Assembly (NCBI GenBank): GCA_014382245.1
Contig: JACNKC010000057.1
Coordinates: forward strand, 174 to 64,173
DNA from: Pseudomonadota bacterium
GTDB lineage: Bacteria; Desulfobacterota; Binatia; UBA1149
Length of the DNA: 64,000 bases
Direction: 5' to 3'
Part shown: in pieces, positions 1 through 48,095 of the stretch
Position numbering within the stretch: the stretch's first letter is position 1
How the letters are laid out: the number at the start of each line of letters is the position of its first letter
Position numbers and translations under genes: made by a program
The notes under the pieces: generated by a model
What the model was told of the DNA's origin: nothing
Databases searched by the model: none
The model's input: only the letters and a program-made list of their open reading frames with translations

Positions 1-14
1 GCGTTCGGGGGGGG

Positions 15-917
15 TCAAGCCCCGCGGATGAACGAAGAGATCGCTCGCAGCGGCTGCCGAGGGTAGACCTGCCCCTGCTTGGGCGGCATGGAATTGTAAA
101 CGTAATCGAGCTCCAGGTCGGATAGCAGTCGACCCCGGTGCCGCCAGGTACCCCGTACGAGTACGCTCTCCATGTCGAGATTGATGGCAAACACTGACAA
201 TTGCTGACCGGGTCGAGGGGGGCCTGAGCTTGCCCCTGCCGGTGTACCCGACATCAACAGCCGGCCGCTATTGGCGGCGGTGCATGGCAGGGGAAGTGAT
301 AGGCGGGGGTAGCCGTTGTCGGCTATCCAGGATGCGAACTTGAGTGTTCGTGGAGATCGTAGCAGTCGCTGTGCCCAGTTAGACAAGGCCGGGACGCTGC
401 CGGCGTCGCTCACCCGTAGTGTTCGAGCAGCGGCCAGCGCGCCGGCACCAAGCGCCAGGCGCAGCCTGGGCAGCGCGTGGTTCCCGGCGTAGTGAACGAG
501 GTCCAGGTAGTGGACAGTGTGCACGCCGAAGTAGGCGTTGTAGCGAAACATGGGTTTACTGTTGTAAGCGTCGAGGTCGGCGCCCCCGCTTGCCTTCTCC
601 GCCCAGTGCGCCGTACCGCTCCAGCAGCGGCCCCTGCTGTTTACTATCATGAAGGCCGCGCGCGGGTCCGATTGCAGGTGACTCTTGCCCAGCCCCTCGC
701 AGAACTGACCGAACATGAGCCGCGTGGGATCCTTGGCGTTGAGCGAGGTGATGAGCGTCACGTGGGGCAGCCCCTCGGGATCGCGGGTGGCCAGCAGCCC
801 GATTTTGGCGTCGACGCCAAACGCGGCCATGGCGGCTTGGTCCAGGGCGAGAGGGGGAGTAAGCCCGTCGCGGTCGCCGTTACGTGTGGGCACAGTCTTG
901 TTGCTCCTGTTCATCAT
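15..917 (-). CDS. PNPOx-like (pyridoxamine 5'-phosphate oxidase family) FMN-binding split-barrel protein, possibly two tandem halves
   Basis: 300-aa ORF. The N-terminal half reads like a PNPOx-family split barrel (..KIGLLATRDPEGLPHVTLITSL..RAAFMIVN..). Its ATG shares an ATGA junction (914-917) with the activase stop, making it the last gene of the GRE operon. Family call is by eye only. Confidence 0.5.
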   Translation of the reverse strand: MMNRSNKTVPTRNGDRDGLTPPLALDQAAMAAFGVDAKIGLLATRDPEGLPHVTLITSLNAKDPTRLMFGQFCEGLGKSHLQSDPRAAFMIVNSRGRCWSGTAHWAEKASGGADLDAYNSKPMFRYNAYFGVHTVHYLDLVHYAGNHALPRLRLALGAGALAAARTLRVSDAGSVPALSNWAQRLLRSPRTLKFASWIADNGYPRLSLPLPCTAANSGRLLMSGTPAGASSGPPRPGQQLSVFAINLDMESVLVRGTWRHRGRLLSDLELDYVYNSMPPKQGQVYPRQPLRAISSFIRGA

Positions 918-2020
918 CGTGCTGCTGGTGGCCTGGGGGTTCTCGCTCCAGTCTGTTTGCCGCCCGGATCACAGGGTACTTTCACCGGGCCGGTCACAAC
1001 GATCTTGTCGCCGTCCAGGCCGCACGAATGTGCCACCTGCTGCAGGTTTTCGAGCTCCCCGGCTGCCATGGTCTCGACACCTTCGAGCTCCCACCGGTTT
1101 CCCAACCGTCGGTACTTGTCGCCGGCCATGTTGTTGAAAGCGAGCAGCTCCCAGCGAGTGACGACGTCACCCAGCTTGCCGGCGATGAACTCTCCCAGCC
1201 CGCGCAGGTTTTCTTCGTTGGCGGTGAGCCCCGGCACCAGCGGCGTACGAATCCACAGAGAATCCCGCCTTTGCTGCTCCCTGAATCGCTGTGCGAGGGC
1301 CAGCACGTTGCGTAGGATTTCGTGGTTGGAGCGGCCAGTGAAATCCGCGTGGCGCGCAGAATCTATTTCCTTGAGGTCGTAGAGCACCAGGTCGGCGTGT
1401 CGCGTTGACCGCTCCAGTGCCTGCCACGTGCACTGCCCGCAGGTGTCGATCGCGGTGTGAATGCCTCGCTCGCGGCAGAGCCGCAACAGCTCGGAAGTGA
1501 ACGCGGGTCTAAGCGAGGGTTCACCGCCCGAGACGGTAACCCCGCCGCCCGAGCAGCCGTACCAGGCCAGGTCGCGGACGACCTCGTCGAAAACGTCGGC
1601 AGCCGATCTCCGTTGTCCCAGCAGTTCGAGCGCTGCCCAGGGGCAGGCGTCTGTGCACGCGGCGTTGCAGCCGTTGCCAGCGCTGCAAAGGGCGTGATCG
1701 ATGTGGATGGTGCCGCCCGTCGCTGTTAGTGCCCCTTTCAAACAGGCATCCTGGCACGGTGTAAGCGCTGGCCTGGCGTCGCCGTTGCTCCCGGTCGTGT
1801 TCTCCCGGGGTATGCACCCGCTGCACCTGGATTCGTGCCACGCCACGCACGTGGCCGACTCCACGCTCTCGGGGTTATGACACCACGTGCACTCCAGGCT
1901 GCAACCCTTGAGAAACACGGTCGTGCGTATGCCCGGACCGTCCTCGGTGGACATTCGCTGCAGGTTGAGCACCGTGGCCTCCGTGTTGTCACGGGCGGTC
2001 GACTGCCGGGAAACCATCAC
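914..2020 (-). CDS. Glycyl-radical enzyme activating enzyme (radical SAM) with ferredoxin-like Cys-rich insert
   Basis: 368 aa. The N-terminal STEDGPGIRTTVFLKGCSLECTWCHNPE contains the CX3CX2C radical-SAM motif typical of GRE activases. It is followed by extra Cys clusters (CSGC.., CSAGNGCNAACTDACP), as in PFL2-class activases. The gene starts 10 nt after the GRE stop. Confidence 0.9.
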   Translation of the reverse strand: MMVSRQSTARDNTEATVLNLQRMSTEDGPGIRTTVFLKGCSLECTWCHNPESVESATCVAWHESRCSGCIPRENTTGSNGDARPALTPCQDACLKGALTATGGTIHIDHALCSAGNGCNAACTDACPWAALELLGQRRSAADVFDEVVRDLAWYGCSGGGVTVSGGEPSLRPAFTSELLRLCRERGIHTAIDTCGQCTWQALERSTRHADLVLYDLKEIDSARHADFTGRSNHEILRNVLALAQRFREQQRRDSLWIRTPLVPGLTANEENLRGLGEFIAGKLGDVVTRWELLAFNNMAGDKYRRLGNRWELEGVETMAAGELENLQQVAHSCGLDGDKIVVTGPVKVPCDPGGKQTGARTPRPPAAR

Positions 2021-2030
2021 CGGGTCTACG

Positions 2031-4550
2031 CTAGGAATGCGCCTCCCTGGCTATGACTTCGTCCTGCAGTTCGCGGCCTATGCTGGTGAAGTAGGCGTTG
2101 TAGCCGGTGACGCGTACCAGCAGGTGGCGGTACTCGCCGGGGTTGAGCTGGGCGTCGCGCAGGGTGTCGGTGTCGATCACGTTGACCTGCAGGGCAGTGC
2201 CCCCGTTTTCGCAGTAGCCACGAAGAAACCCCTTGAACTTTTCGCGGTGCTCTGCGTCGCGCAGCAGCGATGGACTGAAGCTCATGGTATGGCTGGCGCC
2301 GTTGGGCAACGAGTTGCGGTAGTCCTGCCAATCTCCGTCGCTGCCCCGTCCACCCAGCGCCTGGCCAACCGAGTTGACGTTGGCCGTGGGGCCACTGGTA
2401 TCGGCGCCGTTGGACGGGCAAATGGCGTTGGACAGGAACCTGCCCCGCGGTCTTCCGTCGGCGCTCGCCGCCATGACGTAGCCGCCGTCCACCCAGTAGT
2501 TCCAGCTGAGCATGCCGGGACGAAAGCGCCGGCCGGTGCTGACCGTGCTGTGCTTCCAGGTTTCATCGGTCCACAGGTCCATCACGGCGCAGGCCATGGC
2601 GTCGGCCTCCTGTTGGTCGCGGCCGTACTTGGGCGCGCGCCAGCGGGCCCAGGCCTGCAGGGTCTCGTGCCCGTCCCAGTTGTCGCGCAGGGCCGCGGTC
2701 AGCTCCTCCATCGAGCACAGACCGCGGTCGTAGACCAGGTACTTTATCGCGCACAGCGAGTCCACGGTGGTGGCGAAGGTTACGCCCTCGAGCGTGGTAA
2801 GGTTGATCTCGGCGCCGCCGCGGGTGACGTCGGTGGCCGTTTCGGCGCAGCCGCCCACGAGGCAGGACAAGTAGGGCGTGGGGCTGAAGCGGGCGCGCAG
2901 GCTCTCGGTACGTTCGTAGAGGTCAACGCAACGTTGCACGATGAACTCGTTCTGCCTGCTGTAGGCCGCCCAGAAGTCTTCCCAGCGATCGAACTTCCCG
3001 GCGTCACCCGTGCGCGGGCCGTCTCGGCTGATTTCGCGGGACTCGCCGGTCACGGCGTCCATCGCGGGGGCGAGATCCTCGCCGCCTGTAAGCGCGAGTT
3101 CAACGGCCTTGAGCAGGTTGAGGTTACTGTCAACGGTTCCTGAACGGTCGTTGCCCACCATGGTGTTTTCCAGGCAGCCAACCGGCGCGTACTCGTGGAC
3201 GTTGTCCTCGTTTACGAGGTGCTGGTAGCCGGCCTCGGCGGCTTCGCGCATCATACCGGCCATGGATCTCTCGTCGAAGTTGAGCAGGAAGGGCGATCCG
3301 TGGCTGCGCGAGATCATGTCGACCACGGTGTCGAGCAGGCGGTTGGGAGAACCGCGGTGCAGCCGTACACTCGGCTTGGGCTCCAGTATGGGGCTCATCT
3401 CGTCGATGACCTCGAGGATGGCGTAGGTCAGGTCGTTGGTCGTGTCGACGCCCTCGGCTCCAATGCCCGAAAGCGTTATGAGCTGGCCGAAGCCGGAGGT
3501 GATTCCCTGGTTGCCGCCGATTTTTATCATGGCGTCGTAAGCCGTGTTGGCGTGTACCCAGAAGCAGCGCAGGATTTCTTTGCCGAACTCGCGATCCATT
3601 CCGTTCTCGATCGAGCGGCGCCAGCAGGGGTAGAGGTACTGGTCTACGCGGCCGAAGCTCAGGCCGGGGCCGGGGTAGTTTTCGTCGCTCATCACCAGCA
3701 TGTGGGTGAGCCACAGGGATTGTACTGCCTCCCAGAAGTTACGCGCGGGAAGCCAGGGCACGCGTTCCAGGTTGCGGGCCATGTTCTCGAGCTCCGCCCG
3801 GCGAGCCGGGTCGGCTTCGTCGCGGGCCTCGTCGCGGCAGCACCCGGCGTATTTTCCGGCCAATTCCCCGGGCATGAGAGCAGCAGTCATCATGGCGCGC
3901 AGTTGCGAGCCGGGTTGGCCGTTTTTAGCAGCGTGGTCGAGTGCGTCGTAGCGTTGTTCGAGGTCGCGGTGGATGGCTCCCCAGCCATGCTCGATCACCC
4001 GTGGGTAGTCGGGTAGCAAATGGCCGGAGGTAGCACCCGTGTTGCCGTAGCCGTGCTCGTGGAAATCCTTGATCGCGGCTCTCGTGCCGCGCGGGCCGTT
4101 GACCTCGGCATCGCGTCGACGGGCTTCCTCGCGGTTCCAGCAGCGCGAGGCGAGCAGGTTGAAGCGGGCCCCGGCTATGAGATCACCGGGCAGTATTTCC
4201 CGCGGCAACCTGTTGACCATTATTTCGCGGATCAGCCACGCGCGGCGCTCGGCGAGCCCCCGTTGCCAGAAGTCATCGGGCAGATCGACCCTGCGCGCAG
4301 CCTGCAGGGTGGAAGAGCGGAACGGTTGAAAGAACGCGTAGGTCTCCGGGACGATGTAGTAGGTGGTCTCGTCGTAGACCACGTCCCAGTCGGTACCGGT
4401 TGTCCAGCAACTGAACTCGTTGTTCCACTCGCGGTCTACGCCGCGAAAGTAGTAGTCGCGCAGCCACTGTGCGCGTGGGGACAACGCGCGGGGCGCGGGT
4501 ACAGCGGGTTGCTGTTCGCGGTGATTCGTTGCGTGTGCTGATCCTGCCAT
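2031..4550 (-). CDS. Glycyl-radical enzyme, PFL2 / eliminase-like class, substrate unassigned
   Basis: 839 aa. C-terminal glycyl-radical fingerprint LLVRVTGYNAYF (Gly816, nt 2103-2105). Thiyl loop APVGCLEN (Cys459 nt 3174-3176, Glu461). PFL2-type blocks NYPGPGLSFGRVDQYLYP and GGNQGITSGFGQLITLSG. SD AAGGAAA lies upstream of the ATG at 4550. Confidence 0.92.
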   Translation of the reverse strand: MAGSAHATNHREQQPAVPAPRALSPRAQWLRDYYFRGVDREWNNEFSCWTTGTDWDVVYDETTYYIVPETYAFFQPFRSSTLQAARRVDLPDDFWQRGLAERRAWLIREIMVNRLPREILPGDLIAGARFNLLASRCWNREEARRRDAEVNGPRGTRAAIKDFHEHGYGNTGATSGHLLPDYPRVIEHGWGAIHRDLEQRYDALDHAAKNGQPGSQLRAMMTAALMPGELAGKYAGCCRDEARDEADPARRAELENMARNLERVPWLPARNFWEAVQSLWLTHMLVMSDENYPGPGLSFGRVDQYLYPCWRRSIENGMDREFGKEILRCFWVHANTAYDAMIKIGGNQGITSGFGQLITLSGIGAEGVDTTNDLTYAILEVIDEMSPILEPKPSVRLHRGSPNRLLDTVVDMISRSHGSPFLLNFDERSMAGMMREAAEAGYQHLVNEDNVHEYAPVGCLENTMVGNDRSGTVDSNLNLLKAVELALTGGEDLAPAMDAVTGESREISRDGPRTGDAGKFDRWEDFWAAYSRQNEFIVQRCVDLYERTESLRARFSPTPYLSCLVGGCAETATDVTRGGAEINLTTLEGVTFATTVDSLCAIKYLVYDRGLCSMEELTAALRDNWDGHETLQAWARWRAPKYGRDQQEADAMACAVMDLWTDETWKHSTVSTGRRFRPGMLSWNYWVDGGYVMAASADGRPRGRFLSNAICPSNGADTSGPTANVNSVGQALGGRGSDGDWQDYRNSLPNGASHTMSFSPSLLRDAEHREKFKGFLRGYCENGGTALQVNVIDTDTLRDAQLNPGEYRHLLVRVTGYNAYFTSIGRELQDEVIAREAHS

Positions 4551-4566
4551 CGTCGTTGTTTCCTTG

Positions 4567-7479
4567 TCAGGCCGAGGCCATCTCGATCCGTGTCTCGCGG
4601 TCGCTCTGCCCGGGTTGCAGCGAGGCTGGTACCGGTCTCAAGTGATTGTAGCCGCCGGCCAGCTCCACCGGGTTGAGCGGGCTCGGTAGTACGTTGCGGT
4701 AGCCCTTGCCGCCGGGAAACTGGTAGTCCTCCCAGGCGTGGTAGAGGATCACCATGCCCGGGCGCACCGCGTTCGATAGCCGGGCCTTAACGCGGAACTC
4801 GCCCAGGTCGTTGAAGAGGCGCACCGTGTCGCCGTCCTTGATGCCGCGGCTGCGCGCGTCGGGTGCCGCTACGAAGGCGGCCGCTTCTCCGCGCTGCAGT
4901 TGCAGCAGCAGGTCGAGGTTGCGCCAGCCGGCGTGGATGCTCCAGCGGGTGTGGCCGCCGCTGAGCACCAGCGGGTAGTCTCCCCCCGGTCGGGGTACGG
5001 GCAGGTGGGCAGGCAGTTCCTGTCCGAGTTCGAGGTACAAGGGGTGGTCGATGTAAAACTGCACCCTGCGGGTGAGCGTGGGCCAGGGGCCGGGATTGCT
5101 GCGACGCCAACCGCGGTTGACCACCGGTTGGTCGGGCGTCACGTCCGTGGCATTGCCCAGGTTGAAAGGGTGCGTGCCTATTCCGGTTATTCTTTTGAAG
5201 CCATCGTGCCGGAGTTCTTCGAAACCGCCGTCCACGAAGCCGGTCTGTTTTACTATTTCGTGTGCGACCTGCGATTGGGCATGTTCGTCGAAGCGGCCGT
5301 TGAAGGTAAAGCGATGGCCGAAATCATCGAGTCTCTGCTCGTTGCCGTGGCGGTCGCGAAAAGAGGAGACGCCCCGTTCGCGCGCGCGTCGTTCCACCCA
5401 CCGGGCCAGCTCCGCGTGCATGTTCCACTCGGGCTTGCACTCGCCCAGGGGTTCGACGGCCGCCTGGGTGATGTGCAGGTAAGGTGAAAGCAGCGTGAAC
5501 CAGTTGGGTACGTCGTCTTTTTCGTAAGAAGACGCGCCTGGCAGCAGTATGTCGGACTGCAGGCAGGTGGTCGACATGCGCAGGTCGCAGGTGACTACCA
5601 GTTTTATTTTCGGCCAGGCCGTTTCGAGCAGGCGTTGCGCGCTACGCAGGCGCCTCAGTAAATTGCTGCCCGCGACCACGAGCACCCGCGGGGGATCTGC
5701 CGGCGGGCGCTTCTGCCAGTTGTTGTTGTAGGACTCCTCGACGTACTCGTCGATGGGGCGGGGCAGTCGCCTGCCGTGCTCGCCGTCGGTCACCCGGGAC
5801 AAACCGCCGTGGCGTCGCCAGTAAAGCACCGACGATACCACCGACGAATCGTTCATGTAGTCGCGAAAGGCGTCGTATACATAGCGCTCGGTACTGTCGC
5901 CCGCCAGTCGCCGGCCGAGCAGCGCGGGTAGGTGCTTGAGCTTGGCGGCCAGTCCCTCCCACTGGCTGGCGCCGACGGAATCCATGCCCTGCGTCCACAG
6001 GAACGGAGTTGTGTCGAAGCCGGCGCCCGGCTTTCCCACGTGCCCGCCCAGCATGAAAAGCAGCAGTTGCGCCCGCATGATGATGTCGCCGTTGTAGAGC
6101 TTGGGAATAGACGAACCGGCTACGCCGGCCATGGCGCGTGCCCCGGCCACCATATCGGCGAAACGGTGGATGGTTTCAGCCGAGCAGCCGCACAGCTCTG
6201 CCGCTTTTTTGGGCGTGTAGTCCGCGTCGAGTCGCTGGCGCAGGATTTCGAGTACCGGGCGCACGCGGACCGGTCCGTTGTTGGTGCTTACCGTGTAGTT
6301 GCCCTCGAGCGCGGGCGTAACCCCTGCCCAGTCCAGGTCGAAGGGAGCGGGGGAGGGCAGGCCGAGCGAGGGATCCCAGGCGTAGAACTGTTCCTGGCGG
6401 CCGCCTGTGACGAGATCGCTTTCGCGCAGGTAGTGGCCGTCGTCTTTTACCAGCAGTACGAGGTCGGTCTGCGAGCGTACGAAGTCAGCGTCTATGCTGC
6501 CTCGTTCCAATAGTACCTGGCAGGCGGCCAGGGCCAACGCGGCGTCGGTCCCGGGGCGCACGCCTATGAACAGGTCGCTGTGGATGCTCGAGGCCGAGTA
6601 GTCGGTGGCGATGGTGACCACGCGGGTGCCGTTGTAACGGGCCTCGTTGATGAAGTGGGCATTGGGAATCTGCGTGTAAACGGGGTTCGCACCCCAGACC
6701 AGTATGAGATCGGAGTGGAAGAAGTCGTCGGCCGAGCGTGACGATACCGGTGTGCCCATGGTCACCGCTGCGCCGGCCTGCCCGTCGTCGAGCTCGGTGT
6801 TGGTGTCGAGCTCTATGCCGTCGAGCATGTCGACCAGGCGCTGCACGCCCAGCCTCCACGTGGCCGACGCCAGGCTGCCACCGGGCTCAAGGGCCACCGA
6901 GTCGGGACCGGCGAGGGTCACCGCGTCGATGAGCTGGTCGGCGGTCTCGCGGTAGGCTTCGTCCCAGCTGATGCGCTTCCATTTGCCCGAGCCTCTGGGC
7001 CCGACACGTCGCAGCGGGTAGCGCAGGCGGTCGGGCGCGTACATGAGCGCGGAGTAGCAGGCGCCTTTCTGGCAGCCGCGGGGATTGAAGTCGGGTACCT
7101 CGTCGTTTACCGCGGGGTACTCGCCGGCCTGTTCCTCGCGCACGACCACCCCGTCGCGCACGTAGACGTCCCAGGAGCAGTTGCGCTGGTACCAGCAGTT
7201 GACGACGTGCGTACAGCGCACGCGCTTGTCCCAGGCAAGCCGTTGCAGGTAGACGTCCTTCCAGTCGCCGTAGCCCCTTGCTGGAGCGTGGGGCGCGACC
7301 GTACTCGCGGTTGACGTTTCGTATTGGCCGGCATCGCGGTGGCAAGCCGGGACCAGCCCGCCCAGCACGAGGATTGCTGCGCCGCTGCTGCCGCGCCTTA
7401 CGAATTCACGCCTGCTTATTGTTGTTGCCACGCTCGCATCCGTGCCACGTCGGCGCGGGGTGTCGCACACCCCACGCAT
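4567..7479 (-). CDS. Molybdopterin (bis-MGD) oxidoreductase catalytic subunit, NarG/EbdA-like (type II DMSO-reductase family), Tat signal
   Basis: 970 aa. Twin-arginine motif TISRREFVRRGSSGAAILVLGG. FS0-like site RCTHVVNCWYQRNCSWDVYVRDG..PRGCQKG. Block WGANPVYTQIPNAHFINEARYNGTRVV resembles NarG as I recall it. The stop lies 16 nt before the GRE start. The exact start is uncertain (ATG 7479, or GTG near 7431). Confidence 0.85.
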   Translation of the reverse strand: MRGVCDTPRRRGTDASVATTISRREFVRRGSSGAAILVLGGLVPACHRDAGQYETSTASTVAPHAPARGYGDWKDVYLQRLAWDKRVRCTHVVNCWYQRNCSWDVYVRDGVVVREEQAGEYPAVNDEVPDFNPRGCQKGACYSALMYAPDRLRYPLRRVGPRGSGKWKRISWDEAYRETADQLIDAVTLAGPDSVALEPGGSLASATWRLGVQRLVDMLDGIELDTNTELDDGQAGAAVTMGTPVSSRSADDFFHSDLILVWGANPVYTQIPNAHFINEARYNGTRVVTIATDYSASSIHSDLFIGVRPGTDAALALAACQVLLERGSIDADFVRSQTDLVLLVKDDGHYLRESDLVTGGRQEQFYAWDPSLGLPSPAPFDLDWAGVTPALEGNYTVSTNNGPVRVRPVLEILRQRLDADYTPKKAAELCGCSAETIHRFADMVAGARAMAGVAGSSIPKLYNGDIIMRAQLLLFMLGGHVGKPGAGFDTTPFLWTQGMDSVGASQWEGLAAKLKHLPALLGRRLAGDSTERYVYDAFRDYMNDSSVVSSVLYWRRHGGLSRVTDGEHGRRLPRPIDEYVEESYNNNWQKRPPADPPRVLVVAGSNLLRRLRSAQRLLETAWPKIKLVVTCDLRMSTTCLQSDILLPGASSYEKDDVPNWFTLLSPYLHITQAAVEPLGECKPEWNMHAELARWVERRARERGVSSFRDRHGNEQRLDDFGHRFTFNGRFDEHAQSQVAHEIVKQTGFVDGGFEELRHDGFKRITGIGTHPFNLGNATDVTPDQPVVNRGWRRSNPGPWPTLTRRVQFYIDHPLYLELGQELPAHLPVPRPGGDYPLVLSGGHTRWSIHAGWRNLDLLLQLQRGEAAAFVAAPDARSRGIKDGDTVRLFNDLGEFRVKARLSNAVRPGMVILYHAWEDYQFPGGKGYRNVLPSPLNPVELAGGYNHLRPVPASLQPGQSDRETRIEMASA

Positions 7480-7522
7480 CTACGTGGCGGGCAAGGGCAA
7501 CAAGGGCAGCGGAGCGGAAGCC

Positions 7523-7551
7523 AGTATATTCGACCTGGCCGGCTATGACAA
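7523..7551 (-). promoter_or_regulatory. Sigma70-like promoter candidate for the Mo-enzyme/GRE operon
   Basis: The minus strand reads TTGTCA (7551-7546), a 17-nt spacer, then TATACT (7528-7523). It lies in the 121-nt gap between the CoA-transferase stop (7601) and the Mo-enzyme start (7479). Confidence 0.4.
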
Positions 7552-7600
7552 CGCTGAATGGGTGACAGTCTTCCCCCGCGATATACGGCCCGGCCAGTTG

Positions 7601-8848
7601 TCAGCGCAGGTTGGCCAGGTCGATGCTCTTGGGGAAAATCCCGCGGTTGGCGCGGTCGCGCTCCTCCAATCGCTCAATTTCAGCTTCGGGCAGGCCGGCT
7701 TCGGCCATCAGTTCACGGGCGTGCTCTCCTAGCACTGGAGAGGCTGAGCCCAGCCCGGGCTCCTGCCCGTCGAAGGCCAGCGGCGGTCGCGGCAAGCGGC
7801 AGCTTCCGCCCTCGGGGTGCTCGGCTTCGACCAGGGTGTTGCCGTGTCGGACCTGGGGATCCTCGTGAACGCGGTTCACCGGGTTCACCCGGGCCGAGGG
7901 CACGTCAAGCTCGTCGAGCAAGCGGCACAGCGATTCGGTGTCGCGGTCGGCGAGTACGGCGTCCATCTCCTCGGCCAGCTGCTGCCTGTTGGCCACGCGC
8001 CCCCCGAAATTGGCAAACCTGGGATCGGCGTGCAGCTGGCAGCCAAGCGCCTCGCACAGGGCGGCAAAGTCGCTGTCGACTATCAGTATGGTCGACACGT
8101 GGCCGTCGCTGGTGGCAAACAACGGGAAGTAATCGGCAAGTGCCCCCTGTTCGTTTATCTCGTCGCCCAGCAGGGTGTGCTGCCACATGGCGTCGGGCCA
8201 CAGGAAGTACAGCCCCGCGTCCATCATCGACACGGGCAGGAACTGGCCCCGGCCGGTACGCTCGCGCTGAAGCAGCGCTGCGGTTACGGCCTGGGCGGCC
8301 GTCATGCCCGAAACCTTGTCGAACAGCACTGTGCGCACGTTGGCCGGCCTGTCGCCGCCGCCCTGCGCCCCGGCCATGCCGATGGTGGCCTGTACCAGGG
8401 GATCGTACACGCGGCGGTGGACGTAGGGCCCCGACTGCCCGTAGCCAGTGATAGACCCGTAGACGAGGCGGGGATTGACGGCTGCCAGCGACTCGTAGTC
8501 GACACCCAGCTTTGCCGTGACCCCGGGGCGGTAGTTTTCGATAAGCACGTCGGCGGTTTCTACCAGACGCCGCAGGATGGCCGCGTCGTCTGCCTGCTTG
8601 AGGTCCAGGGCTATCGAGCGCTTGTTGCGGTTGAGCACCGAGAACTGTGCGGCGACCCCGTTCCGGTTGTTGCCCATGAAACGCGCGAGGTCACCGGTAC
8701 CCGGCGGCTCAACCTTGACCACGTCGGCGCCCTGGTCGGCCAGTATCATGCCGGCAAGCGGACCAGACACAGTGGAGGTGAGTTCGATGACGCGGTAGCC
8801 GGCCAGCGGCCCAGCGACGGTACGTTGACCATATCCTTTATTCGCCAT
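7601..8848 (-). CDS. Family III CoA-transferase (CaiB/BaiF family)
   Basis: The recognisable protein begins MANKGYGQRTVAGPLAGYRVIELTSTVSGPLAGMILADQGADVVKVEPPGTGD. The track ORF (to 9412) carries a 188-aa low-complexity extension that overlaps the divergent neighbour, so I trimmed it to the ATG at 8848. Confidence 0.85.
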   Translation of the reverse strand: MANKGYGQRTVAGPLAGYRVIELTSTVSGPLAGMILADQGADVVKVEPPGTGDLARFMGNNRNGVAAQFSVLNRNKRSIALDLKQADDAAILRRLVETADVLIENYRPGVTAKLGVDYESLAAVNPRLVYGSITGYGQSGPYVHRRVYDPLVQATIGMAGAQGGGDRPANVRTVLFDKVSGMTAAQAVTAALLQRERTGRGQFLPVSMMDAGLYFLWPDAMWQHTLLGDEINEQGALADYFPLFATSDGHVSTILIVDSDFAALCEALGCQLHADPRFANFGGRVANRQQLAEEMDAVLADRDTESLCRLLDELDVPSARVNPVNRVHEDPQVRHGNTLVEAEHPEGGSCRLPRPPLAFDGQEPGLGSASPVLGEHARELMAEAGLPEAEIERLEERDRANRGIFPKSIDLANLR

Positions 8849-8933
8849 GGGGGTAATATTTTGACTCGCCCACGCTGTGTCCAATCCCGAAAGTGGGTTA
8901 TCGGACGCTTCCCCCTTTTGATAGGGTTCGCGC

Positions 8934-10700
8934 ATGCTCCACGCGATTCCGGGTTGGCGCCAGCATAAGCTGGCTGTTTCGGTGATCTGCGTGGCTCTTA
9001 CCGCCGCTGCTGCTTGCACGCGGACACCGGCTACCACGGTGTTCGTGGCCCGTAGTGTTGTGACCATGGACCCGGCGAATCCACGGGCCGAGGCCGTGGC
9101 GGTGGCCGAGGGAAAGATCCTCGCGGTGGGCAGTCGCGAGGAGCTCTCGCCGCTGGCCGGCTGCAAGGGCTGCGTGATCGACAAGCGCTTTGCCGACGAT
9201 GTGCTGTTGCCCGGCTTCGTGGAGAACCACCTGCACCCCGACATGGCAGCCATGCTGCTGGCGTTACCGATAACGGCACCGTTTGACTGGGAACTGCCGG
9301 GCGGAACGATCAAGGGCATACGCGGCAGGCAGGCTTTTCTCGACAGGTTGCGCGAACTCGATGCCGCTCTTGGCGACGGCTCTCTTGAAGACGGTGGCCA
9401 GCCGCTGATCACCTGGGGCTACCACGATTTCTTTCACGGTGCGGGACTCGACCGAGACGCGCTCGACGCGGTGTCGACCACGCGCGCAGTGGTGGCCTGG
9501 CACCGTTCGTTTCACGAGGTCATAGCCAATTCGGTCGCGCTCGAGTGGATGGGAGTCACCCGCGAGACGGCGGCGCGGCTGCCCGGTGTCGCTTTGCGCG
9601 CAGACGGCGAGCCCACCGGCCGCCTGTCGGAGCTGGGGCTGCTGGTCGCGCTCGGTACGCTGTCCCCGGTGGTGCTGGGCGAAGAGGCCATGGATCGCGG
9701 TCACTCCATCGTGCGGCAGATGATACACCGCGGCGGCATCACCACGGTTGTCGACATGGCCTACGGCATGTTCAGCGACGAGCGCGAGTGGCCGATTCTC
9801 AAGCGCAACCTCGACCGCGACGACGTGCCTTTTCGCACCCGCCTGGTGCCTCTGCCCTTCGCCCTGGGACGCGAGTGGGGCGAGGATCTGTTCGACAGGG
9901 TAGAGGCCCTGCCGCAACGCAACAGTGAGCGCCTGGCCTTCGTGCGGCAGGTCAAGATGATAGGAGACGGCGCGTTCTTTTCCCTGTTGATGCGAATGCA
10001 ACCGCCGGGATACCTGGAGGGGGGAGTGGGCGAGTGGAACACCGAGCCGGGGCGCATGGTCGAGGGTCTCGCGCCCTGGTGGAAAGCGGGCTACCAGCTG
10101 CACGTGCACAGCAACGGCGACGCGGCCCAGGTGGCGGTGCTCGACGCGCTCGATCAGCTGCAGGCCGAGCACCCGCGAGAGGATCACCGCTTTACCTTTC
10201 ATCACTTTGCGCAGGCGCGCCCGAACGAGCTGGATCGCATGGCCGCGGCCGGTGCGTTGGTGTCAGCCAACGTGTACTACAACTACTTCATGGCCGACAT
10301 TTACGCCGAGCGCGGGCTTGGCCTGCCGCGCGCCGAGAAGATCACGCCGCTGGGGTCGCTGGTCAAGCGCGGGGTGAAGGTGTCGCTGCATTCCGACCTG
10401 CCCATGGGGCCGGCGCGCCCGCTGCTCGCGGCCTGGGCCGCTGCCACTCGGCTGACCCATGAAGGCAAGACCCGTGGCGCCGACGAGGCGCTTACCCCGG
10501 GGCAGGCCCTGCTCGCGATCACCAGCGACGCGGCCTACGCGGTGGGTATGGAAGACGAGGTTGGCAGCATACGAGTGGGCCTCAGGGCCGACTTCGTGGC
10601 GTTGCCCGACGATCCGTTGTCGGTGGAGCTAGACGAGTGGCCCAACATTATCCCGGTGGCCACCGTGCTCTCGGGTAAAGTTTACCCGGTCAGGCAATAG
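8934..10700 (+). CDS. Amidohydrolase family (amidohydrolase-3 / YtcJ-like) lipoprotein
   Basis: 588 aa. Signal with lipobox-like LTAAAAC. VVTMDPANPRAEAVAVAEGKILAVGS and LLPGFVENHLHP are metal-binding motifs typical of this family. Confidence 0.8.
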   Translation: MLHAIPGWRQHKLAVSVICVALTAAAACTRTPATTVFVARSVVTMDPANPRAEAVAVAEGKILAVGSREELSPLAGCKGCVIDKRFADDVLLPGFVENHLHPDMAAMLLALPITAPFDWELPGGTIKGIRGRQAFLDRLRELDAALGDGSLEDGGQPLITWGYHDFFHGAGLDRDALDAVSTTRAVVAWHRSFHEVIANSVALEWMGVTRETAARLPGVALRADGEPTGRLSELGLLVALGTLSPVVLGEEAMDRGHSIVRQMIHRGGITTVVDMAYGMFSDEREWPILKRNLDRDDVPFRTRLVPLPFALGREWGEDLFDRVEALPQRNSERLAFVRQVKMIGDGAFFSLLMRMQPPGYLEGGVGEWNTEPGRMVEGLAPWWKAGYQLHVHSNGDAAQVAVLDALDQLQAEHPREDHRFTFHHFAQARPNELDRMAAAGALVSANVYYNYFMADIYAERGLGLPRAEKITPLGSLVKRGVKVSLHSDLPMGPARPLLAAWAAATRLTHEGKTRGADEALTPGQALLAITSDAAYAVGMEDEVGSIRVGLRADFVALPDDPLSVELDEWPNIIPVATVLSGKVYPVRQ

Positions 10701-11751
10701 CAGCGGCAAGCGCGGCGGCGGCATCGGCCATGGCCTGGCGCGCCCCGCGGCTCACCTGGGTGGTGTTGGCAAAGCCGTGCACTTGGCCTTCGACACGGCA
10801 CAGCGTTACCGGCACTCCGGCCAGTTCGAGTCGCTCGGCGTATGCTTCGCCCTCGTCTCTGAGGGGGTCGAAGCCGGCCGTGGTGACGTAAGCCGGTGGC
10901 AGGCCCGAAAGGTCTTCTGCCAGCAGCGGCGAAGCCGAGGGGTCTTCGACGGCCTGCTGGCGGTCACCCGTGTAGTGGCGGATGTACCACTCCATCTGCG
11001 AGGCGGTCAGAAAAAAACCGTCGGCGAACAAGCGGTACGATTCGCTGCGGGCCGACAGGTCGGTGACCGGGTAGATTGGCAGCTGGAAGGCCGGCGAGGG
11101 TCCGCCGTCGCGCGTGGCGCGCAGCGAAACCGAGGCCGCCAGGTTGCCACCGGCGCTGTCGCCGCCAACCGCCACCCGCGATGCGTTGATGGCCAGGCGC
11201 TCGGCGTTTTCGAGCGCCCAGCGAAACGCCGCCAGGGCGTCGTCGGTCGCCGCCGGAAAGGGATGTTCGGGGGCCAGCCGGTAGTCCACCGATAATACCT
11301 TGACGCCGGCCTTCTCTGCGAGGAATCGGCAGGGCTGGTCATGGCTGTCGATGCTGCCCACCACCCATCCTCCACCGTGGTAGTAGACCAGCAGGCCGCC
11401 GCCATCGGCGCAAGCGTGGGGCACGTAGAGTCGCGCGGCGAGTTCGCCGTCCGCGCCAGCGCAGGAGAGTTCCTCGACGCGTTGCATGGCTATGGGTTCA
11501 CCGCTTGCGACAGCCGCGCCGCTTTCGATGTGCTGCCGTACCTCGGCCACGGTCAGGTCGTCGTATGATGGGTGATCGTCGAACGACATCGCGAGCAGCA
11601 GCAGTTGCACGTCTGCGTCCAGCGTGAGGCCATCCACGCGGGTGGAACTGCCACCGGCGAGCAGGAGCTGCAGGCGTTCGGGCAGAGCCATCATCGATCG
11701 CAGCAACAGGCGTTGGGCTTTTTCAGCGAGGCCGAGCGGGCGTGGTTCCAT
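10690..11751 (-). CDS. Alpha/beta hydrolase fold-3 esterase/lipase (hormone-sensitive-lipase family)
   Basis: HGGG oxyanion motif (VYYHGGGWVVGS) and GDSAGG nucleophile elbow. Start chosen at ATG 11751, 9 nt after a GGAGG SD; the track ORF starts at GTG 11775. The 3' end overlaps the convergent amidohydrolase by 11 nt. Confidence 0.85.
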   Translation of the reverse strand: MEPRPLGLAEKAQRLLLRSMMALPERLQLLLAGGSSTRVDGLTLDADVQLLLLAMSFDDHPSYDDLTVAEVRQHIESGAAVASGEPIAMQRVEELSCAGADGELAARLYVPHACADGGGLLVYYHGGGWVVGSIDSHDQPCRFLAEKAGVKVLSVDYRLAPEHPFPAATDDALAAFRWALENAERLAINASRVAVGGDSAGGNLAASVSLRATRDGGPSPAFQLPIYPVTDLSARSESYRLFADGFFLTASQMEWYIRHYTGDRQQAVEDPSASPLLAEDLSGLPPAYVTTAGFDPLRDEGEAYAERLELAGVPVTLCRVEGQVHGFANTTQVSRGARQAMADAAAALAAAIA

Positions 11752-11852
11752 GGTGGTCATCCTCCGCGGCAACACGATTACGATATCGCGGAGGGCGAGA
11801 CCAGGGCCGGCGGGTAGTTACATATCGGGGACAAGATGATAAAAGGCTTGGG

Positions 11853-12674
11853 GTGGAAGTTCTTCTTACAGGCGCGGCCCTCGGGGCCGAAGTAAGGGGG
11901 CTTGATCTCACCCGCGAATTGACGGGTACAGAGTTAGCAGCGGTGACGGCGGCGCTGGTCGAACACAAGGTGCTGTTTTTTCGCGACCAGCCTCTTGGGC
12001 CGGCCGACCACCACCGCTTTGCGTCATACTTCGGGCCGCTGCAACGCCACCCCGCGTTTCCGCACGTGGACGACTACCCCGAGCTCACCATACTCGAAAG
12101 CGACCGCGCGCGTCCTTCAAAAATAGACAAGTGGCACTGCGACATGACTTACCTCGAGTGCCCACCGCTGGGCAGCGTGCTCAGGGCTACCGTCATTCCT
12201 GACAAGGGCGGCGACACGATGTGGATGAATCTCGAGGCGGCCTGGCAGGCGCTGCCCCTGGACTTGCAGCAAAGGTTGGCCCAAATGCAGGCCGAGCACA
12301 GCTTTGCGCATGGCTACCGAGAGAGCCTGGCCGAACCCGGCGGCAGGGACCGTCTCGCGCGGGCCGTGGCCGACAACCCGCCCGTGCTGCACCCGGTGAT
12401 GCGTCGTCACCCGGTCAGCAAGCGGCCCTGCTTGTTCGTCAACAGCCTGTTCACCACGCGCCTGCTTGGCATGGAAGAACGCGAGAGCGAGCAACTGCTG
12501 GCGCGGCTGTACGCGCACATCGAGAAGCCGGAGTTTCGGTACCGCTTCAGTTGGGAGGTCGACTCGATCGCTTTCTGGGACAACCGAGCCACGCAGCATA
12601 AGCCGGTACAGGATTGGTGGCCGGCGCGGCGTTGTCACCAGCGCATTACCATAGAGGGCGACAGACCGGTGTGA
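11853..12674 (+). CDS. TauD/TfdA-family Fe(II)/2-oxoglutarate dioxygenase
   Basis: HxD facial-triad motif (KWHCDMTY) and a TauD-like N-terminus (GAEVRGLDL..). I chose the start at in-frame GTG 11853 because the track ORF begins at 11742, inside the divergent esterase. The start is uncertain. Confidence 0.75.
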   Translation: MEVLLTGAALGAEVRGLDLTRELTGTELAAVTAALVEHKVLFFRDQPLGPADHHRFASYFGPLQRHPAFPHVDDYPELTILESDRARPSKIDKWHCDMTYLECPPLGSVLRATVIPDKGGDTMWMNLEAAWQALPLDLQQRLAQMQAEHSFAHGYRESLAEPGGRDRLARAVADNPPVLHPVMRRHPVSKRPCLFVNSLFTTRLLGMEERESEQLLARLYAHIEKPEFRYRFSWEVDSIAFWDNRATQHKPVQDWWPARRCHQRITIEGDRPV

Positions 12675-20981: not shown

Positions 20982-22244
20982 TCAGTCCTCACCCGCGGCC
21001 TCGGCGTCAAATTCAATGTACATCTCTTTTACGCCCGAGATGAAATTGGACACCAGCTGACGGTGCTCGCCCAGCAGGCGGGGGTTGCGCAGGCGCGGTA
21101 TCATTTCTTCGAACATAACGGTCAGCTCCTTGCGCGCCAGGTGTGAGCCCAGGCAGAAGTGCTGGCCTATGCCGAAGGTGCGGTGCTCGCTTTTGAGCTC
21201 GGGCATACGCTGCGCGCGGGTCACGTCGAAGGCTTCCGAATCGGGTCCGAACACCGACTGCTCGTGGTTGGCCGAAGGGTAATACATGCGCAGGATGTCG
21301 CCTTTTTTTACCTGCTTGTCGCCCACGGTGACGTCGCGGGTGGCGGTGCGCTGCATGTAGTTGAAGGACGGATGATAGCGCAGGATTTCTTCTACCGCGC
21401 CTGGTATCAGCGAGGGGTCGTCTACCAGCAGTTGCAGTTGCTCGGGGTGCTCGATGAGCAGGCGCATGCCCTGGCTGGTGGCCGTTCTCGTGGTCTCGAT
21501 TCCGCCGGCGATCAGTATCAGGAAGAAGGCGCAAAACTCGAATTCGTCGAGGGCCTCGCCTTCGACCACGCCGTTGAGCAGGGCGTCGAGCACGGTGCCC
21601 TCCCTGGGATTGGTCTTGTGCTCGGCGGCCAGGCCCATGGCGATTTCGAACAGGCGCGCTGCAGCCAACTGGCCGTCTTCCGAGCTCACGTTGAGCTCGG
21701 GGTCGTCCATGCCGATCATCACGTCCACCAGGTCCGAGAATTCCTTGCGTTTTTCTGAGGGCATTTCCATGAGTGCGCAGATGACGAACAAGGGCATCTC
21801 GGCAGCCACCTCCGAGGCGAACTCGCAGCGTCCCCTCGCCGCGATCTTGTCGATGATCTCGCGGGCGCGTTCTCGCATCATGGGCTCGAGCGCATCGACA
21901 GCGCGCAAGGTGAAGGCGTTGCGTACAACCTTGCGGTACTGGTTGTGGTCGGGGGGATCCATGTTGATGATCAGCCGCCGCATGATTTCCTGCTCTGCCG
22001 GGTCGTCGCCGGCGGGATGCGGGTGCGCCATGTTTATCGACGACGAGAACAGGCCGGGGTTCTTGGAGACAAAATCTATCTCCTCTCGCCTGGTGAGCGC
22101 CCAGAACTCGCCCGAGTGCTCGGTCGCATCCTGCCTTGAGACCGGGCACTGGCTCCTGAGCGTGGCCAGGTCTTCAAACGGTATGCCGTGGCTCATGCGC
22201 TCGGGGTCCATGAGGTTGAACTGGTAGGGGCATTCGTCGTTCAT
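20982..22244 (-). CDS. Cytochrome P450
   Basis: Heme-thiolate motif FGIGQHFCLGSHLA, I-helix AGGIETTRTA, and ExxR (EEILRY). 420 aa. Confidence 0.92.
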   Translation of the reverse strand: MNDECPYQFNLMDPERMSHGIPFEDLATLRSQCPVSRQDATEHSGEFWALTRREEIDFVSKNPGLFSSSINMAHPHPAGDDPAEQEIMRRLIINMDPPDHNQYRKVVRNAFTLRAVDALEPMMRERAREIIDKIAARGRCEFASEVAAEMPLFVICALMEMPSEKRKEFSDLVDVMIGMDDPELNVSSEDGQLAAARLFEIAMGLAAEHKTNPREGTVLDALLNGVVEGEALDEFEFCAFFLILIAGGIETTRTATSQGMRLLIEHPEQLQLLVDDPSLIPGAVEEILRYHPSFNYMQRTATRDVTVGDKQVKKGDILRMYYPSANHEQSVFGPDSEAFDVTRAQRMPELKSEHRTFGIGQHFCLGSHLARKELTVMFEEMIPRLRNPRLLGEHRQLVSNFISGVKEMYIEFDAEAAGED

Positions 22245-22330: not shown

Positions 22331-23569
22331 ATGGCTGACCTGCTTTTCACCAACGCGACCGTGCTCGACCTGGTCGCGGGCGAGCCGCGGCCAGGAATGA
22401 CCGTGCGCTGCGAGGGCGAACGCATAGTCGAGCTGACTGAGAGGGGCGCCCGGGCTGCCGGCGGCGACCTGCGCAGTATCGACTGCCGCGGTCGCACGCT
22501 GATGCCCGGTCTCATCGACGCCCACGTGCACGCGTCCATCACCACGCTCGACCTTTCCTCCATGCAGAACAAGCCGGCCACCCTGGTGGCTCACGAGGCC
22601 GCTGCGGTGTTGGGCGGTATGCTTGACCGTGGTTTTACCACCGTGCGCGACGCCGGCGGCAGCGACTGGGGCCTGGCCCAGGCCGTGGACAAGGGGCTGG
22701 TAAGGGGCCCGAGGATTTTTTACTCGGGCAGGGTGCTCAGCCAGACCGGCGGCCATGGCGATTTCCGTCCACGCACCGATGACGTGCCCGTCTGCGCGTG
22801 CAGCATTTATTCCGGCGGTTTTTCGCACGTGGCAGATGGCGTAACGGCGGTGAGAAAAGCGGCGCGCGAGGAGCTGCGGCGTGGCGCTACGCAGGTCAAG
22901 ATCATGGCCTCTGGCGGTGTGGCTTCGCCTACCGACCCGGTGTGGAACGTCCAGTACTCGCCCGAGGAAATGCGCGCCATAGTCGAGGAGGCCCGGGGCT
23001 GGCGCACTTATGCCATGGCCCACGCCTACACGCCCGAGGCTGTGACCCGGGCCGTTCAAGCCGGCGTGCGCACCATTGAGCACGGCAACCTGATAGACGC
23101 TGACACGGCGAGGTTGATGGCCGAACACGGTGCCTTCCTGGTTCCCACGCTGGTCATCTACCACGCGGCTGCCGAGACGGGTAGGCAGTTCGGTTTTCCC
23201 GAGACGAGTATGCGTAAGCTCGACGACGTGCTGCAAGCCGGTACGCGTTCATTGGAGCTCGCCCGCGAAGCTGGTGTAGAGATGGGCTTTGGCACCGACC
23301 TGCTGGGCGAAGTACACGACCAGCAGCTGCGCGAGTTCAGCTTGCGCGCCGAGGTGCTGCCGCCGATCGAAGTGCTGAGGTCGGCCACCACGGTGAACGC
23401 CCGTATACTCGACCGCGAGGGCGAGCTGGGAGTAGTGGCCGAGGGGGCGCTGGCTGACTTGCTGCTGGTGGACGGCAACCCGCTCGATGACCTGTCGTTG
23501 TTCGCCGACCCGTCCCGCGTACCGCTGGTAGTAAAGGCAGGGCAGGTGGCCGTGGAGAGGGACGCCTGA
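22331..23569 (+). CDS. Amidohydrolase-family metallo-hydrolase
   Basis: MADLLFTNATVLD.., RTLMPGLIDAHVHA (HxH), and the KIMASGG region. ATG 22331 is preferred over the TTG at 22325. Confidence 0.85.
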   Translation: MADLLFTNATVLDLVAGEPRPGMTVRCEGERIVELTERGARAAGGDLRSIDCRGRTLMPGLIDAHVHASITTLDLSSMQNKPATLVAHEAAAVLGGMLDRGFTTVRDAGGSDWGLAQAVDKGLVRGPRIFYSGRVLSQTGGHGDFRPRTDDVPVCACSIYSGGFSHVADGVTAVRKAAREELRRGATQVKIMASGGVASPTDPVWNVQYSPEEMRAIVEEARGWRTYAMAHAYTPEAVTRAVQAGVRTIEHGNLIDADTARLMAEHGAFLVPTLVIYHAAAETGRQFGFPETSMRKLDDVLQAGTRSLELAREAGVEMGFGTDLLGEVHDQQLREFSLRAEVLPPIEVLRSATTVNARILDREGELGVVAEGALADLLLVDGNPLDDLSLFADPSRVPLVVKAGQVAVERDA

Positions 23570-24669
23570 TGGGCACCGCGCCGAGGGGCTGCCGGCTGAC
23601 GACGGAAGGCGGTCTACCACTGCTGGTCGAGCCCGAACTGCCGGGGGCTGGCGAATTGGGCAAAAGCGAAGCCGCCGGTGGCGGCGTAGCTACGGCCGTG
23701 GGTCTGGCCGCTTGGCTCAGCGAGAACAGCGACTGGGTGCAGGCGCGCCTGCTGGAGCACGGCGCGCTGTTATTCCGTGGCTTTCGGGTTACCGCCGCAC
23801 CCGACTTTGAGTCCGTGGCGCGCGCGTTAGAGCCCGAACTTGGCACCGAGTATCTCGGCACTTCGCCACGCGAGCCGCTTCAGGGTAGCCGCTACGTGTT
23901 TTCGGCAAGTGAGCTGCCCTCGCATTATCCCATCGCCCAGCACGCCGAGATGAGCTTCGTGGCCAGGCCACCGCGACGCTTGTTTTTTTGTTGCTTCCAG
24001 GAGCCCGCCGATGGCAGTGGTGAAACCCCGGTCACGGATTTGCGCAGGGTCTGGAGTGAGCTCGACGCTGATCTCAAGCGGCGGCTGCTGGCCGGCGGCC
24101 TGCGCATAGTGCGCAACTACTGCGGCCCGGCGGCGAAATCGCGCAGCCCGTTCCAACTCAAGGGCTGGCACGAGATGTTTGGCACCACCGATCGAGGGGC
24201 GGTGGAGACAAAGTGCCGCCTGGAGGGCTTCGAAGTGAGCTGGCTCGAGGGCGACGCGCTGCGCCTGGTCCACACCCAGTCGCTTGTGCGCGACCATTCC
24301 GACACCGGCGAAACCGCGTGGCACAATCACCTGCAGGTCTTTCATCTATCCTCGGCCGCCGGTGAATACCGACGTATTTTCGCCTTGCGACCCACGTTGC
24401 GTAACTTTGCGGTCTGGCAGTTGGCGCGTTTGCTTACCTTGCTGCAGCGCCTGACACGCAGCAGTGAAGAGCAGGCTATGCACTGCACACGTCTCGATGG
24501 TGGTGAGATTGCGACCGCCGACGTGGAGGCGGTGCGCGACGCCATCTGGCGCAACATGGTGGTGACGCCGTGGCGACTTGGCGACGTCCTGGTGATCGAC
24601 AACCAGTCTACGGCGCACGGTAGGTTGCCTTACCGAGGCCGTCGCGAAATCGCCGTGGCCTGGGCTTGA
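23569..24669 (+). CDS. Clavaminate-synthase-like / TauD-family Fe(II)/2OG dioxygenase
   Basis: HxE motif (AQHAEMSF) and distal His (STAHGRLPY). The start shares one nt with the upstream stop (TGATG), indicating translational coupling. Confidence 0.75.
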   Translation: MGTAPRGCRLTTEGGLPLLVEPELPGAGELGKSEAAGGGVATAVGLAAWLSENSDWVQARLLEHGALLFRGFRVTAAPDFESVARALEPELGTEYLGTSPREPLQGSRYVFSASELPSHYPIAQHAEMSFVARPPRRLFFCCFQEPADGSGETPVTDLRRVWSELDADLKRRLLAGGLRIVRNYCGPAAKSRSPFQLKGWHEMFGTTDRGAVETKCRLEGFEVSWLEGDALRLVHTQSLVRDHSDTGETAWHNHLQVFHLSSAAGEYRRIFALRPTLRNFAVWQLARLLTLLQRLTRSSEEQAMHCTRLDGGEIATADVEAVRDAIWRNMVVTPWRLGDVLVIDNQSTAHGRLPYRGRREIAVAWA

Positions 24670-48000: not shown

Positions 48001-48095
48001 CGGCAAGGTAACCCCCTGTGGTTTCGCGGAGCGTGATTTCGCGCAGCGTGAGCCTGCGGAATCTAGCCGTGGCGCCGCGCTGAAAAAAGCGCGCG

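Follow-up and report, generated by a model that had tools for sequence, protein, structure and literature searches.

The 64,000-nucleotide stretch of contig JACNKC010000057.1 analysed here (the window), from a Pseudomonadota bacterium placed by GTDB in the Binatia, carries four consecutive genes encoding a molybdenum (Mo) enzyme, a glycyl-radical enzyme (GRE), a GRE activase and a PNPOx-like partner protein. Judging from genome comparisons, the Mo gene is joined to the GRE cassette in one lineage only, and the conserved part of the operon is the trio of GRE, activase and partner. The best explanation we can offer, to which we assign a probability of roughly 0.6 with its mechanism included, is that two units with separate evolutionary histories adjoin head to tail in this lineage. 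The first would be a stand-alone bis-molybdopterin guanine dinucleotide enzyme, exported by the twin-arginine translocation (Tat) pathway, with an Asp-ligated Mo and the [4Fe-4S] cluster FS0, that is, an orphan EbdA-like alpha subunit. The second would be an ancient cytoplasmic three-gene GRE cassette, usually led by a FadR-type GntR regulator.

The evidence for this comes from surveys of both kinds of gene. From the GRE side, the proteins of the window were compared by tblastn with 80 other genome loci of the GRE family (64–72% identity), here numbered with the prefix L. Downstream genes were scored in the 65 loci with at least 2.3 kb of sequence past the GRE gene, and upstream genes in the 55 loci with at least 3.2 kb. 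The PNPOx-like gene is kept in all 65 loci and the activase gene in 61 of the 65, in the same order and on the same strand, across Binatia, Myxococcota, Desulfobacterota, Chloroflexota, Spirochaetota, Bacteroidota and others; a Mo gene is found upstream of the GRE gene in none of the 55. A Mo gene is also missing beside the three GREs most closely related outside the species (73–74% identity), of which two, in L168 and L170, have the regulator. The initial annotation of this stretch had proposed a survey for conserved co-occurrence of GRE, Mo enzyme and PNPOx-like protein, of which the PNPOx part stands and the Mo part does not. Its central proposal, that Mo enzyme and GRE work together in a new radical pathway, fares poorly, since the association is not conserved in related genomes, an outcome that the annotation had itself named as refuting.

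When the neighbouring open reading frames (ORFs) were clustered de novo, the only further conserved neighbour was a GntR regulator with an FCD domain (FadR-type, ~250 aa), which 45 of 85 loci have directly upstream of the GRE gene and in the same orientation. Neither the window nor L001, the contig that we used for the flank beyond the window, has this regulator, and the Mo gene fills its slot. A gene for a coenzyme A (CoA) transferase, which lies upstream of the Mo gene in the window, adjoins the GRE gene in 0 of the 80 loci and is not conserved with the Mo subfamily either; this non-conservation rules it out as part of either module. The trio itself persists over considerable divergence. For example, in L172 and L173 a partner of only 25% identity still follows GRE and activase, and the GRE beside such a partner is 55% identical to that of the window and retains all family motifs; the trio is therefore ancient. 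In two loci, L021 (12629-13459) and L052 (4674-5495), the partner gene is found beside the GRE gene with no activase gene detectable within the locus. The tie of the partner to the GRE is therefore no weaker than its tie to the activase. In L052, a gene for an amine-oxidase-like flavoprotein lies between those for the GRE and the partner.

From the other side, the Mo subfamily (64–71% identity) comprises about 20 clusters, and its contexts were examined at seven loci, the window and six others (L085, L086, L087, L088, L174 and L175). In five of these six (L085–L088 and L174), the Mo gene stands alone among varying, unrelated neighbours, with no GRE gene within 8–10 kb; genes for beta, gamma or delta subunits are missing from all seven contexts. 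One metagenome-assembled genome (MAG), GCA_029261835.1, has orthologues of both units on different contigs, the Mo gene in L088 (70% identity) and the GRE cassette, with its GntR regulator, in L168 (73%). Among 79 metagenome loci of more distant Mo relatives (40–52% identity), a Fer4_11 beta subunit is encoded in 22, a Nitrate_red_del delta chaperone in 14 and an EB_dh gamma subunit in 10, and a GRE of the type in the window in none.

The four genes are tightly packed on one strand and carry the hallmarks that the initial annotation cited, with spacings of 16, 10 and −4 nt (Table 1). The Mo gene ends in TGA, followed after a 16-nt spacer holding AAGGAAA by the ATG of the GRE gene; the TAG of the GRE gene is followed after 10 nt by the GTG of the activase gene; and the activase TGA and the ATG of the partner gene share the sequence ATGA. 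The spacer between the Mo and GRE genes is too short for a terminator or a promoter. The predicted sigma-70-like promoter is present where it had been reported, in the 121-nt gap between the CoA-transferase and Mo genes, and is the best of three such matches in 9.5 kb, where shuffled sequence gave 1.0 ± 1.0. It is likely to be the start of a Mo–GRE–activase–partner transcript, although a consensus match of this kind is weak evidence. The CoA-transferase gene has a promoter-like site of its own at 8883..8855. The order from CoA-transferase to partner gene is found at 100% identity in four independent assemblies (L001–L004), and the arrangement is therefore not an assembly artefact; a chimera can be ruled out by the identical junctions. 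The GC content is uniform over the operon region.

Table 1. Coordinates of the operon and its immediate context within the window
Feature	Position	Strand	Remarks
Mo enzyme gene	4567..7479	minus	ORF, 970 aa from ATG 7479
GRE gene	2031..4550	minus	ORF, 839 aa
GRE activase gene	914..2020	minus	ORF, 368 aa, GTG start
PNPOx-like partner gene	15..917	minus	ORF, 300 aa
Spacer between Mo and GRE genes	4551..4566	minus	16 nt with AAGGAAA Shine-Dalgarno
Sigma-70-like promoter match TTGTCA-17-TATACT	7551..7523	minus	10/12 consensus positions
Family III CoA-transferase gene (context)	7601..8848	minus	upstream of Mo gene

The GRE belongs to an uncharacterised clade, as had been suggested. It matches the Pfam models PFL-like (366.6 bits) and Gly_radical (75.9 bits), and has the motif RVTGY at residues 813–817, with Gly816 as the predicted radical site; the C-terminal motif RVxG[FWY] is invariant in 16 of 16 aligned homologues. 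The Cys loop, VGC459LE461N, is of the CXE type, and C459 aligns with Cys434 of HypD (chain residue 454). All NCBIfam equivalogs are missed, with scores of 346 bits against a cut-off of 1100 for HypD, 340 against 1000 for HpsG, 316 against 1000 for HpfG, 279 against 1050 for CutC, 236 against 1109 for PFL and 209 against 1100 for IAD. The best solved relatives score low as well (HypD 264 bits, IslA 255, CutC 251), and membership in a characterised clade can be ruled out on these two counts. Clade-specific motifs include MLSWNYW and the invariant SDENYPGPG at residues 288–296, within which Pro295 aligns with Asp278 of HypD, a residue reported in the HypD structure papers to bind the substrate amine. 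Residues 1 to ~175 align neither with the PFL-like Pfam model nor with any solved GRE. This same region (1–175) is highly conserved inside the clade, as in the stretch WNNEF.CWTTGT.WDVVYDE..YYIVPE.

More than 120 protein clusters are 67–74% identical to the GRE, and a scan of species-representative genomes with family-specific peptide patterns picks out at least 581 relatives, spread over Binatia, Myxococcota, Syntrophaceae, Desulfobacterales, Anaerolineae, Spirochaetota, Bacteroidales, Gemmatimonadota and others; the cluster members are all from MAGs. Our literature search gave nothing on the GRE family, and found neither published omics data nor a cultured host for the cassette. A 2026 review of the field (PMC13450708) notes that whole GRE clades are without validation, and places the CXE motif in the eliminase and isomerase classes. 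The string 'molybd' occurs nowhere in its text, and it describes no characterised GRE with a Mo enzyme or flavoprotein partner, in agreement with the earlier remark that no characterised GRE locus is known to be led by a bis-MGD oxidoreductase.

The cassette is best read, from its sequence features, as a three-component GRE system of the CXE eliminase/isomerase type. With the GRE 1,2-eliminases (HypD, IslA/IseG, CutC, the glycerol and propanediol dehydratases, and HpsG/HpfG) it shares the PFL-like ten-stranded barrel, the C-terminal RVxG[FY] loop, the CXE Cys loop and a dedicated activase with auxiliary-cluster Cys residues. Unlike these enzymes, it is at most ~30% identical to any of them and misses the equivalog models by a factor of at least 3; the cassette in the window has a conserved tandem split-barrel partner, and the family a FadR-type regulator. 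Microcompartment shell genes are also missing, and aldehyde-processing genes are not conserved. The CXE motif and the logic of hydrogen abstraction from a carbinol are equally those of the GRE isomerases (YbiW, PflD and HplG), and the sugar-type ABC importer and FGGY kinase beside some family members recall the sugar-phosphate substrates of these isomerases. Scores against the isomerases, however, are only 188–236 bits, no aldolase partner is present, and the sugar hints come from few lineages.

The activase is, by its sequence, a radical-SAM glycyl-radical activating enzyme adjoining its GRE. It passes the TIGR02494 model (277 bits, cut-off 174), and has a CX3CX2C motif formed by C40, C44 and C47 with nine further Cys residues in a ferredoxin-like insert. 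The partner is less easily placed. It barely exceeds the Pfam PNPOx_N cut-off (30.6 against 28.1 bits), a match that covers the N-terminal half in 32 of 32 aligned members. It consists of two tandem split beta-barrel domains (PNPOx/FMN-binding fold), whose halves align weakly and in register (hhalign E 0.005). Identity as PdxH can be rejected: no functional model matched, and the sole NCBIfam match, TIGR03618, reached 17 bits against a cut-off of 79. The family is compact, with 276 representatives after 50% clustering of 1.84 billion proteins, nearly all of them 270–300 aa long. About 40 residues are invariant in the 32-member alignment, many of them polar, including H52, Q71, E74, K78, R125, Y126, N127, H133, K193, R255, Y274 and N275.

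Compared with split-barrel and PNPOx-fold proteins such as Swol_0183 (3in6), the Desulfovibrio vulgaris FMN-binding protein, HupZ and the F420 reductases, the partner shows 12–19% identity; unlike those small proteins, it has two barrels fused in a 280–300-aa chain, forming a pseudo-dimer. A parallel in another GRE operon is LssP, a PNPOx-family protein with unexplained function that is encoded and expressed in the operon of the GRE limonenylsuccinate synthase (PMC12583861). The likeness is one of protein family, and the system of LssP differs, being a fumarate-adding X-succinate synthase with beta and gamma subunits.

The Mo enzyme is, on the strength of its model matches, a divergent alpha subunit of the type II DMSO reductase family. 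It has the Pfam domains Molybdopterin and Molydop_binding, and matches TIGR03479 (DMSO_red_II_alpha) over its full length (E = 2e-239) at 797 bits, short of the cut-off of 984.75. The protein appears intact from its motifs. Its nearest systems are those of the same family: EbdABCD, PcrAB, NarGHI, DdhABC, SerABC and steroid C25 dehydrogenase. The best solved match is EbdA (2ivf_A, 539 bits), with which it shares the FS0 motif (H91-x3-C95-x5-C101...C136), the Asp ligand of Mo (D232, aligned with EbdA Asp223) and the twin-arginine signal. In other respects it departs from EbdA. It stays under both curated cut-offs, reaching 552 of the required 2000 bits on the EbdA equivalog, and in place of the active-site His192 of EbdA, which we take to be important for catalysis, it has an invariant Gly-Gly (G200/G201). 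Unlike EbdABCD or NarGHJI-like complexes, the subfamily is also without beta, gamma and delta genes in its seven contexts. The claim of EbdA-type C–H activation was an over-reading in view of this score and of the His192 replacement; moreover, the type II family also includes reductases, and a C–H-activating label is unwarranted for that reason.

The twin-arginine motif SRREF lies at residues 22–26 (S22-R-R-E-F-V-R), and RRxFL is conserved throughout the subfamily. Gene callers favour GTG 7431 as the start of the Mo gene (954 aa), and we consider it more likely than ATG 7479, as it leaves a standard short n-region ahead of SRREFVRR. The Mo enzyme is accordingly predicted to be periplasmic, and the GRE and activase, which have no signal peptide, to be cytoplasmic, where the SAM and reductant that they need would be available. 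The different predicted compartments would argue against a direct coupling of the two enzymes.

In the mechanism that we propose, the radical-SAM activase would place the radical on Gly816 of the GRE, as expected for its family. A thiyl radical at Cys459 would then take hydrogen from the carbinol carbon, with Glu461 deprotonating the hydroxyl, as in the CXE classes. The result would be a 1,2-elimination or a ring-opening isomerisation of a small hydroxylated substrate, giving a carbonyl product; the substrate itself would probably be a polyol, a sugar-like compound or a hydroxy-acid. The split-barrel protein would bind a flavin-type cofactor and either reduce or oxidise the carbonyl product, or assist the GRE as a dedicated accessory or in electron transfer. 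In this lineage, the cassette would have come to lie behind the Mo gene, in the place of its regulator, through a rearrangement, with transcription reading through from the Mo promoter.

Some weak indications of the substrate can be found next to other members of the family. Genes for an aldehyde:ferredoxin oxidoreductase (AOR) and an iron-dependent alcohol dehydrogenase lie downstream of the cassette in 3–5 loci, an FGGY carbohydrate kinase gene abuts the GRE gene in 4 loci, and an MFS transporter gene is present in 3. L172 has a CUT2 sugar-type ABC importer together with LrgAB carriers. FadR-type regulators, for their part, usually sense carboxylates. Together, the neighbour genes and the regulator class hint at a small polyol, a sugar-like compound or a hydroxy-acid.

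Several points weigh against the explanation as a whole. The substrate hints come from few related lineages, and the GRE chemistry and the role of the partner are proposals, with substrate, cofactor and activity predicted from sequence. Flavin binding by the partner is suggested by its fold, at 12–19% identity to binders of FMN, F420 or haem, and co-transcription of the Mo gene with the cassette, which is probable, is read from the 16-nt spacer. Another objection is L175 (MAG GCA_975970615.1), where a GRE gene lies directly upstream of a 68–70%-identical Mo gene on the same strand; the proximity of this Mo subfamily to GREs may therefore not be pure accident. One such direct adjacency in six contexts would have a chance of ~0.01, a rough estimate that assumes about 4 GRE genes per 5000-gene genome and leaves out the window, which was selected for its adjacency.

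The GRE of L175 is of a different clade from that of the window, to which it is 30% identical; it scores 614 bits on the PFL2-3 model, and its nearest solved relatives are the Archaeoglobus fulgidus PFL2 and glycerol dehydratase. Genes for an activase or a split-barrel protein are missing within reach of it. In this locus (L175:5424-10757), the Mo twin-arginine motif is in frame with the GRE gene, whose stop is TGA 7890-7892, and no ATG, GTG or TTG occurs from that stop to the motif. A rare start codon, a missing signal or read-through may account for this in the L175 Mo gene. The neighbours include a gene for an enolase-superfamily protein and, on the opposite strand, genes for an MtmB-family methyltransferase and a corrinoid protein.

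The alternative closest to our explanation is that the adjacency of Mo and GRE genes, both in the window and in L175, reflects hitch-hiking under selection for a shared anaerobic promoter and not a shared pathway, the cassette and the Mo gene having in common just a need for anoxic expression in a facultative organism. The absence of the cassette's own regulator from the window is consistent with this, as are the difference between the two Mo-adjacent GRE clades and the presence of genes for a cytochrome P450 and two TauD-family dioxygenases in the window, which indicate that the host is not a strict anaerobe. We regard it as rather less likely than not; it largely overlaps the explanation by two independent units, which it refines and does not contradict.

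Another alternative concerns the partner, which might be no pathway enzyme and instead a dedicated low-potential electron donor to the [4Fe-4S] cluster of the activase, taking the place of flavodoxin. The PFL activating enzyme of E. coli, PFL-AE, is reduced physiologically by flavodoxin, which is encoded apart from it (PMC13450708); the partner gene, moreover, always follows the activase gene, with an ATGA overlap in the window. It is nevertheless kept by the GRE without an activase in L021 and L052, and its ~40 invariant and often polar residues suggest an active site or a specific interface over a simple carrier. Other GRE systems also do with general reductants. A role limited to electron donation seems rather improbable. 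It may also be, at somewhat short of even odds, that a new class of GRE requires the tandem split-barrel protein as its third component; this is more probable than a functional tie between Mo enzyme and GRE.

Such a tie would take the form of a pathway in which a periplasmic oxidation, hydroxylation or reduction by the Mo enzyme yields a product that is imported to a cytoplasmic PFL2-type GRE, or in which the order is reversed, with different lineages pairing different GREs. Its attractions are the 16-nt gap in the window and the arrangement in L175, where less than 50 nt separate the GRE gene from the twin-arginine motif of the Mo gene and where the adjacency would have the low chance estimated above. 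A GRE or activase gene near distant Mo relatives (40–45% identical, EbdA-like) in L122 and L166 could be added to these, but 2 of 79 loci within 8 kb is about the chance expectation. L122:1126-10733 encodes an unassigned 848-aa GRE, an activase and two family III CoA-transferases, divergent from the distant Mo gene; in L166:601-4407, an activase gene is followed without a gap by the distant Mo gene, with no visible GRE. The pathway has further to contend with the absence of the Mo gene from all 55 GRE-cassette loci, the absence of a GRE within 8–10 kb of five of the six other subfamily members, the unlinked orthologues in GCA_029261835.1, the 30% identity between the GREs of the window and L175, which makes a shared substrate unlikely, and the different predicted compartments with no transporter at the locus. 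We consider it improbable, and are just as doubtful of its more general form, that the orphan Mo subfamily, which abuts two GRE clades in opposite orders in the window and L175, is functionally tied to PFL2-type GREs.

The window begins 14 nt past the end of the partner gene, and contig L001 shows a trypsin-like protease gene beyond it, then a respiratory-type cluster on the opposite strand. That cluster (L001:16527-22520, ~2 kb beyond the operon) encodes a 154-aa protein, a 489-aa multihaem cytochrome, NrfD, a 314-aa four-cluster FeS protein, two cytochrome c7-like proteins and its own Mo oxidoreductase, of 787 aa and with a Molybdop_Fe4S4 domain. In the window and the L001 flank, no NarH/NarI- or EbdB/C/D-type partner, shell protein or transporter adjoins the operon, so that the absence of NarH/NarI-like, shell and transporter genes reported earlier extends past the window edge. 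Tblastn queries for beta, gamma and delta subunits and for GntR found no such gene in the 64-kb window or beyond its edge; the only hit, at ~30% identity, was to a 4Fe-4S protein that is unrelated and belongs to a separate NrfD/multihaem cluster. No riboswitch or structured RNA, such as a Moco riboswitch, was detected in positions 1..9600 at E <= 1. We saw no relation of the operon to defence systems, for which only a trivial radical-SAM similarity to viperins could be cited.

Further out, at 11742-12674, 20982-22244 and 23569-24669, the window has genes for two TauD-family dioxygenases and a cytochrome P450. These oxygen-dependent enzyme genes lie 7–20 kb from the gene for the oxygen-sensitive GRE, which implies a facultative or micro-oxic lifestyle and not that of a strict anaerobe. 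Family III CoA-transferase genes stand beside EbdA-like Mo genes in the window and in four of the 79 distant loci (L097, L102, L104 and L122), with up to three copies in L104, and none is next to the GRE cassette elsewhere. A DUF3604 protein encoded at 45775-48339 of the window has a counterpart at L086:5962-7914, 2 kb upstream of the Mo homologue there, possibly by coincidence.

For the scanning of genomes, the case carries a caution: the tight, operon-like packing of these genes in a single genome was no guide to a conserved functional link. The Mo subfamily can be flagged as a partner-less branch of EbdA-like molybdoenzymes. If the tie between Mo enzyme and GRE were real after all, it would amount to a two-compartment anaerobic route in which the enzymes act in sequence on one compound class. 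The discovery of GREs has repeatedly uncovered major anaerobic transformations, among them the conversion of choline to trimethylamine, the dehydration of hydroxyproline and the cleavage of sulfonates. The clade described here is large, its conservation across phyla is unusual, and its invariant partner is unseen in characterised GRE systems. Should the mechanism turn out to depend on this partner, be it as a reductant in activation, a redox partner or a subunit, the known architecture of GRE systems would be extended.

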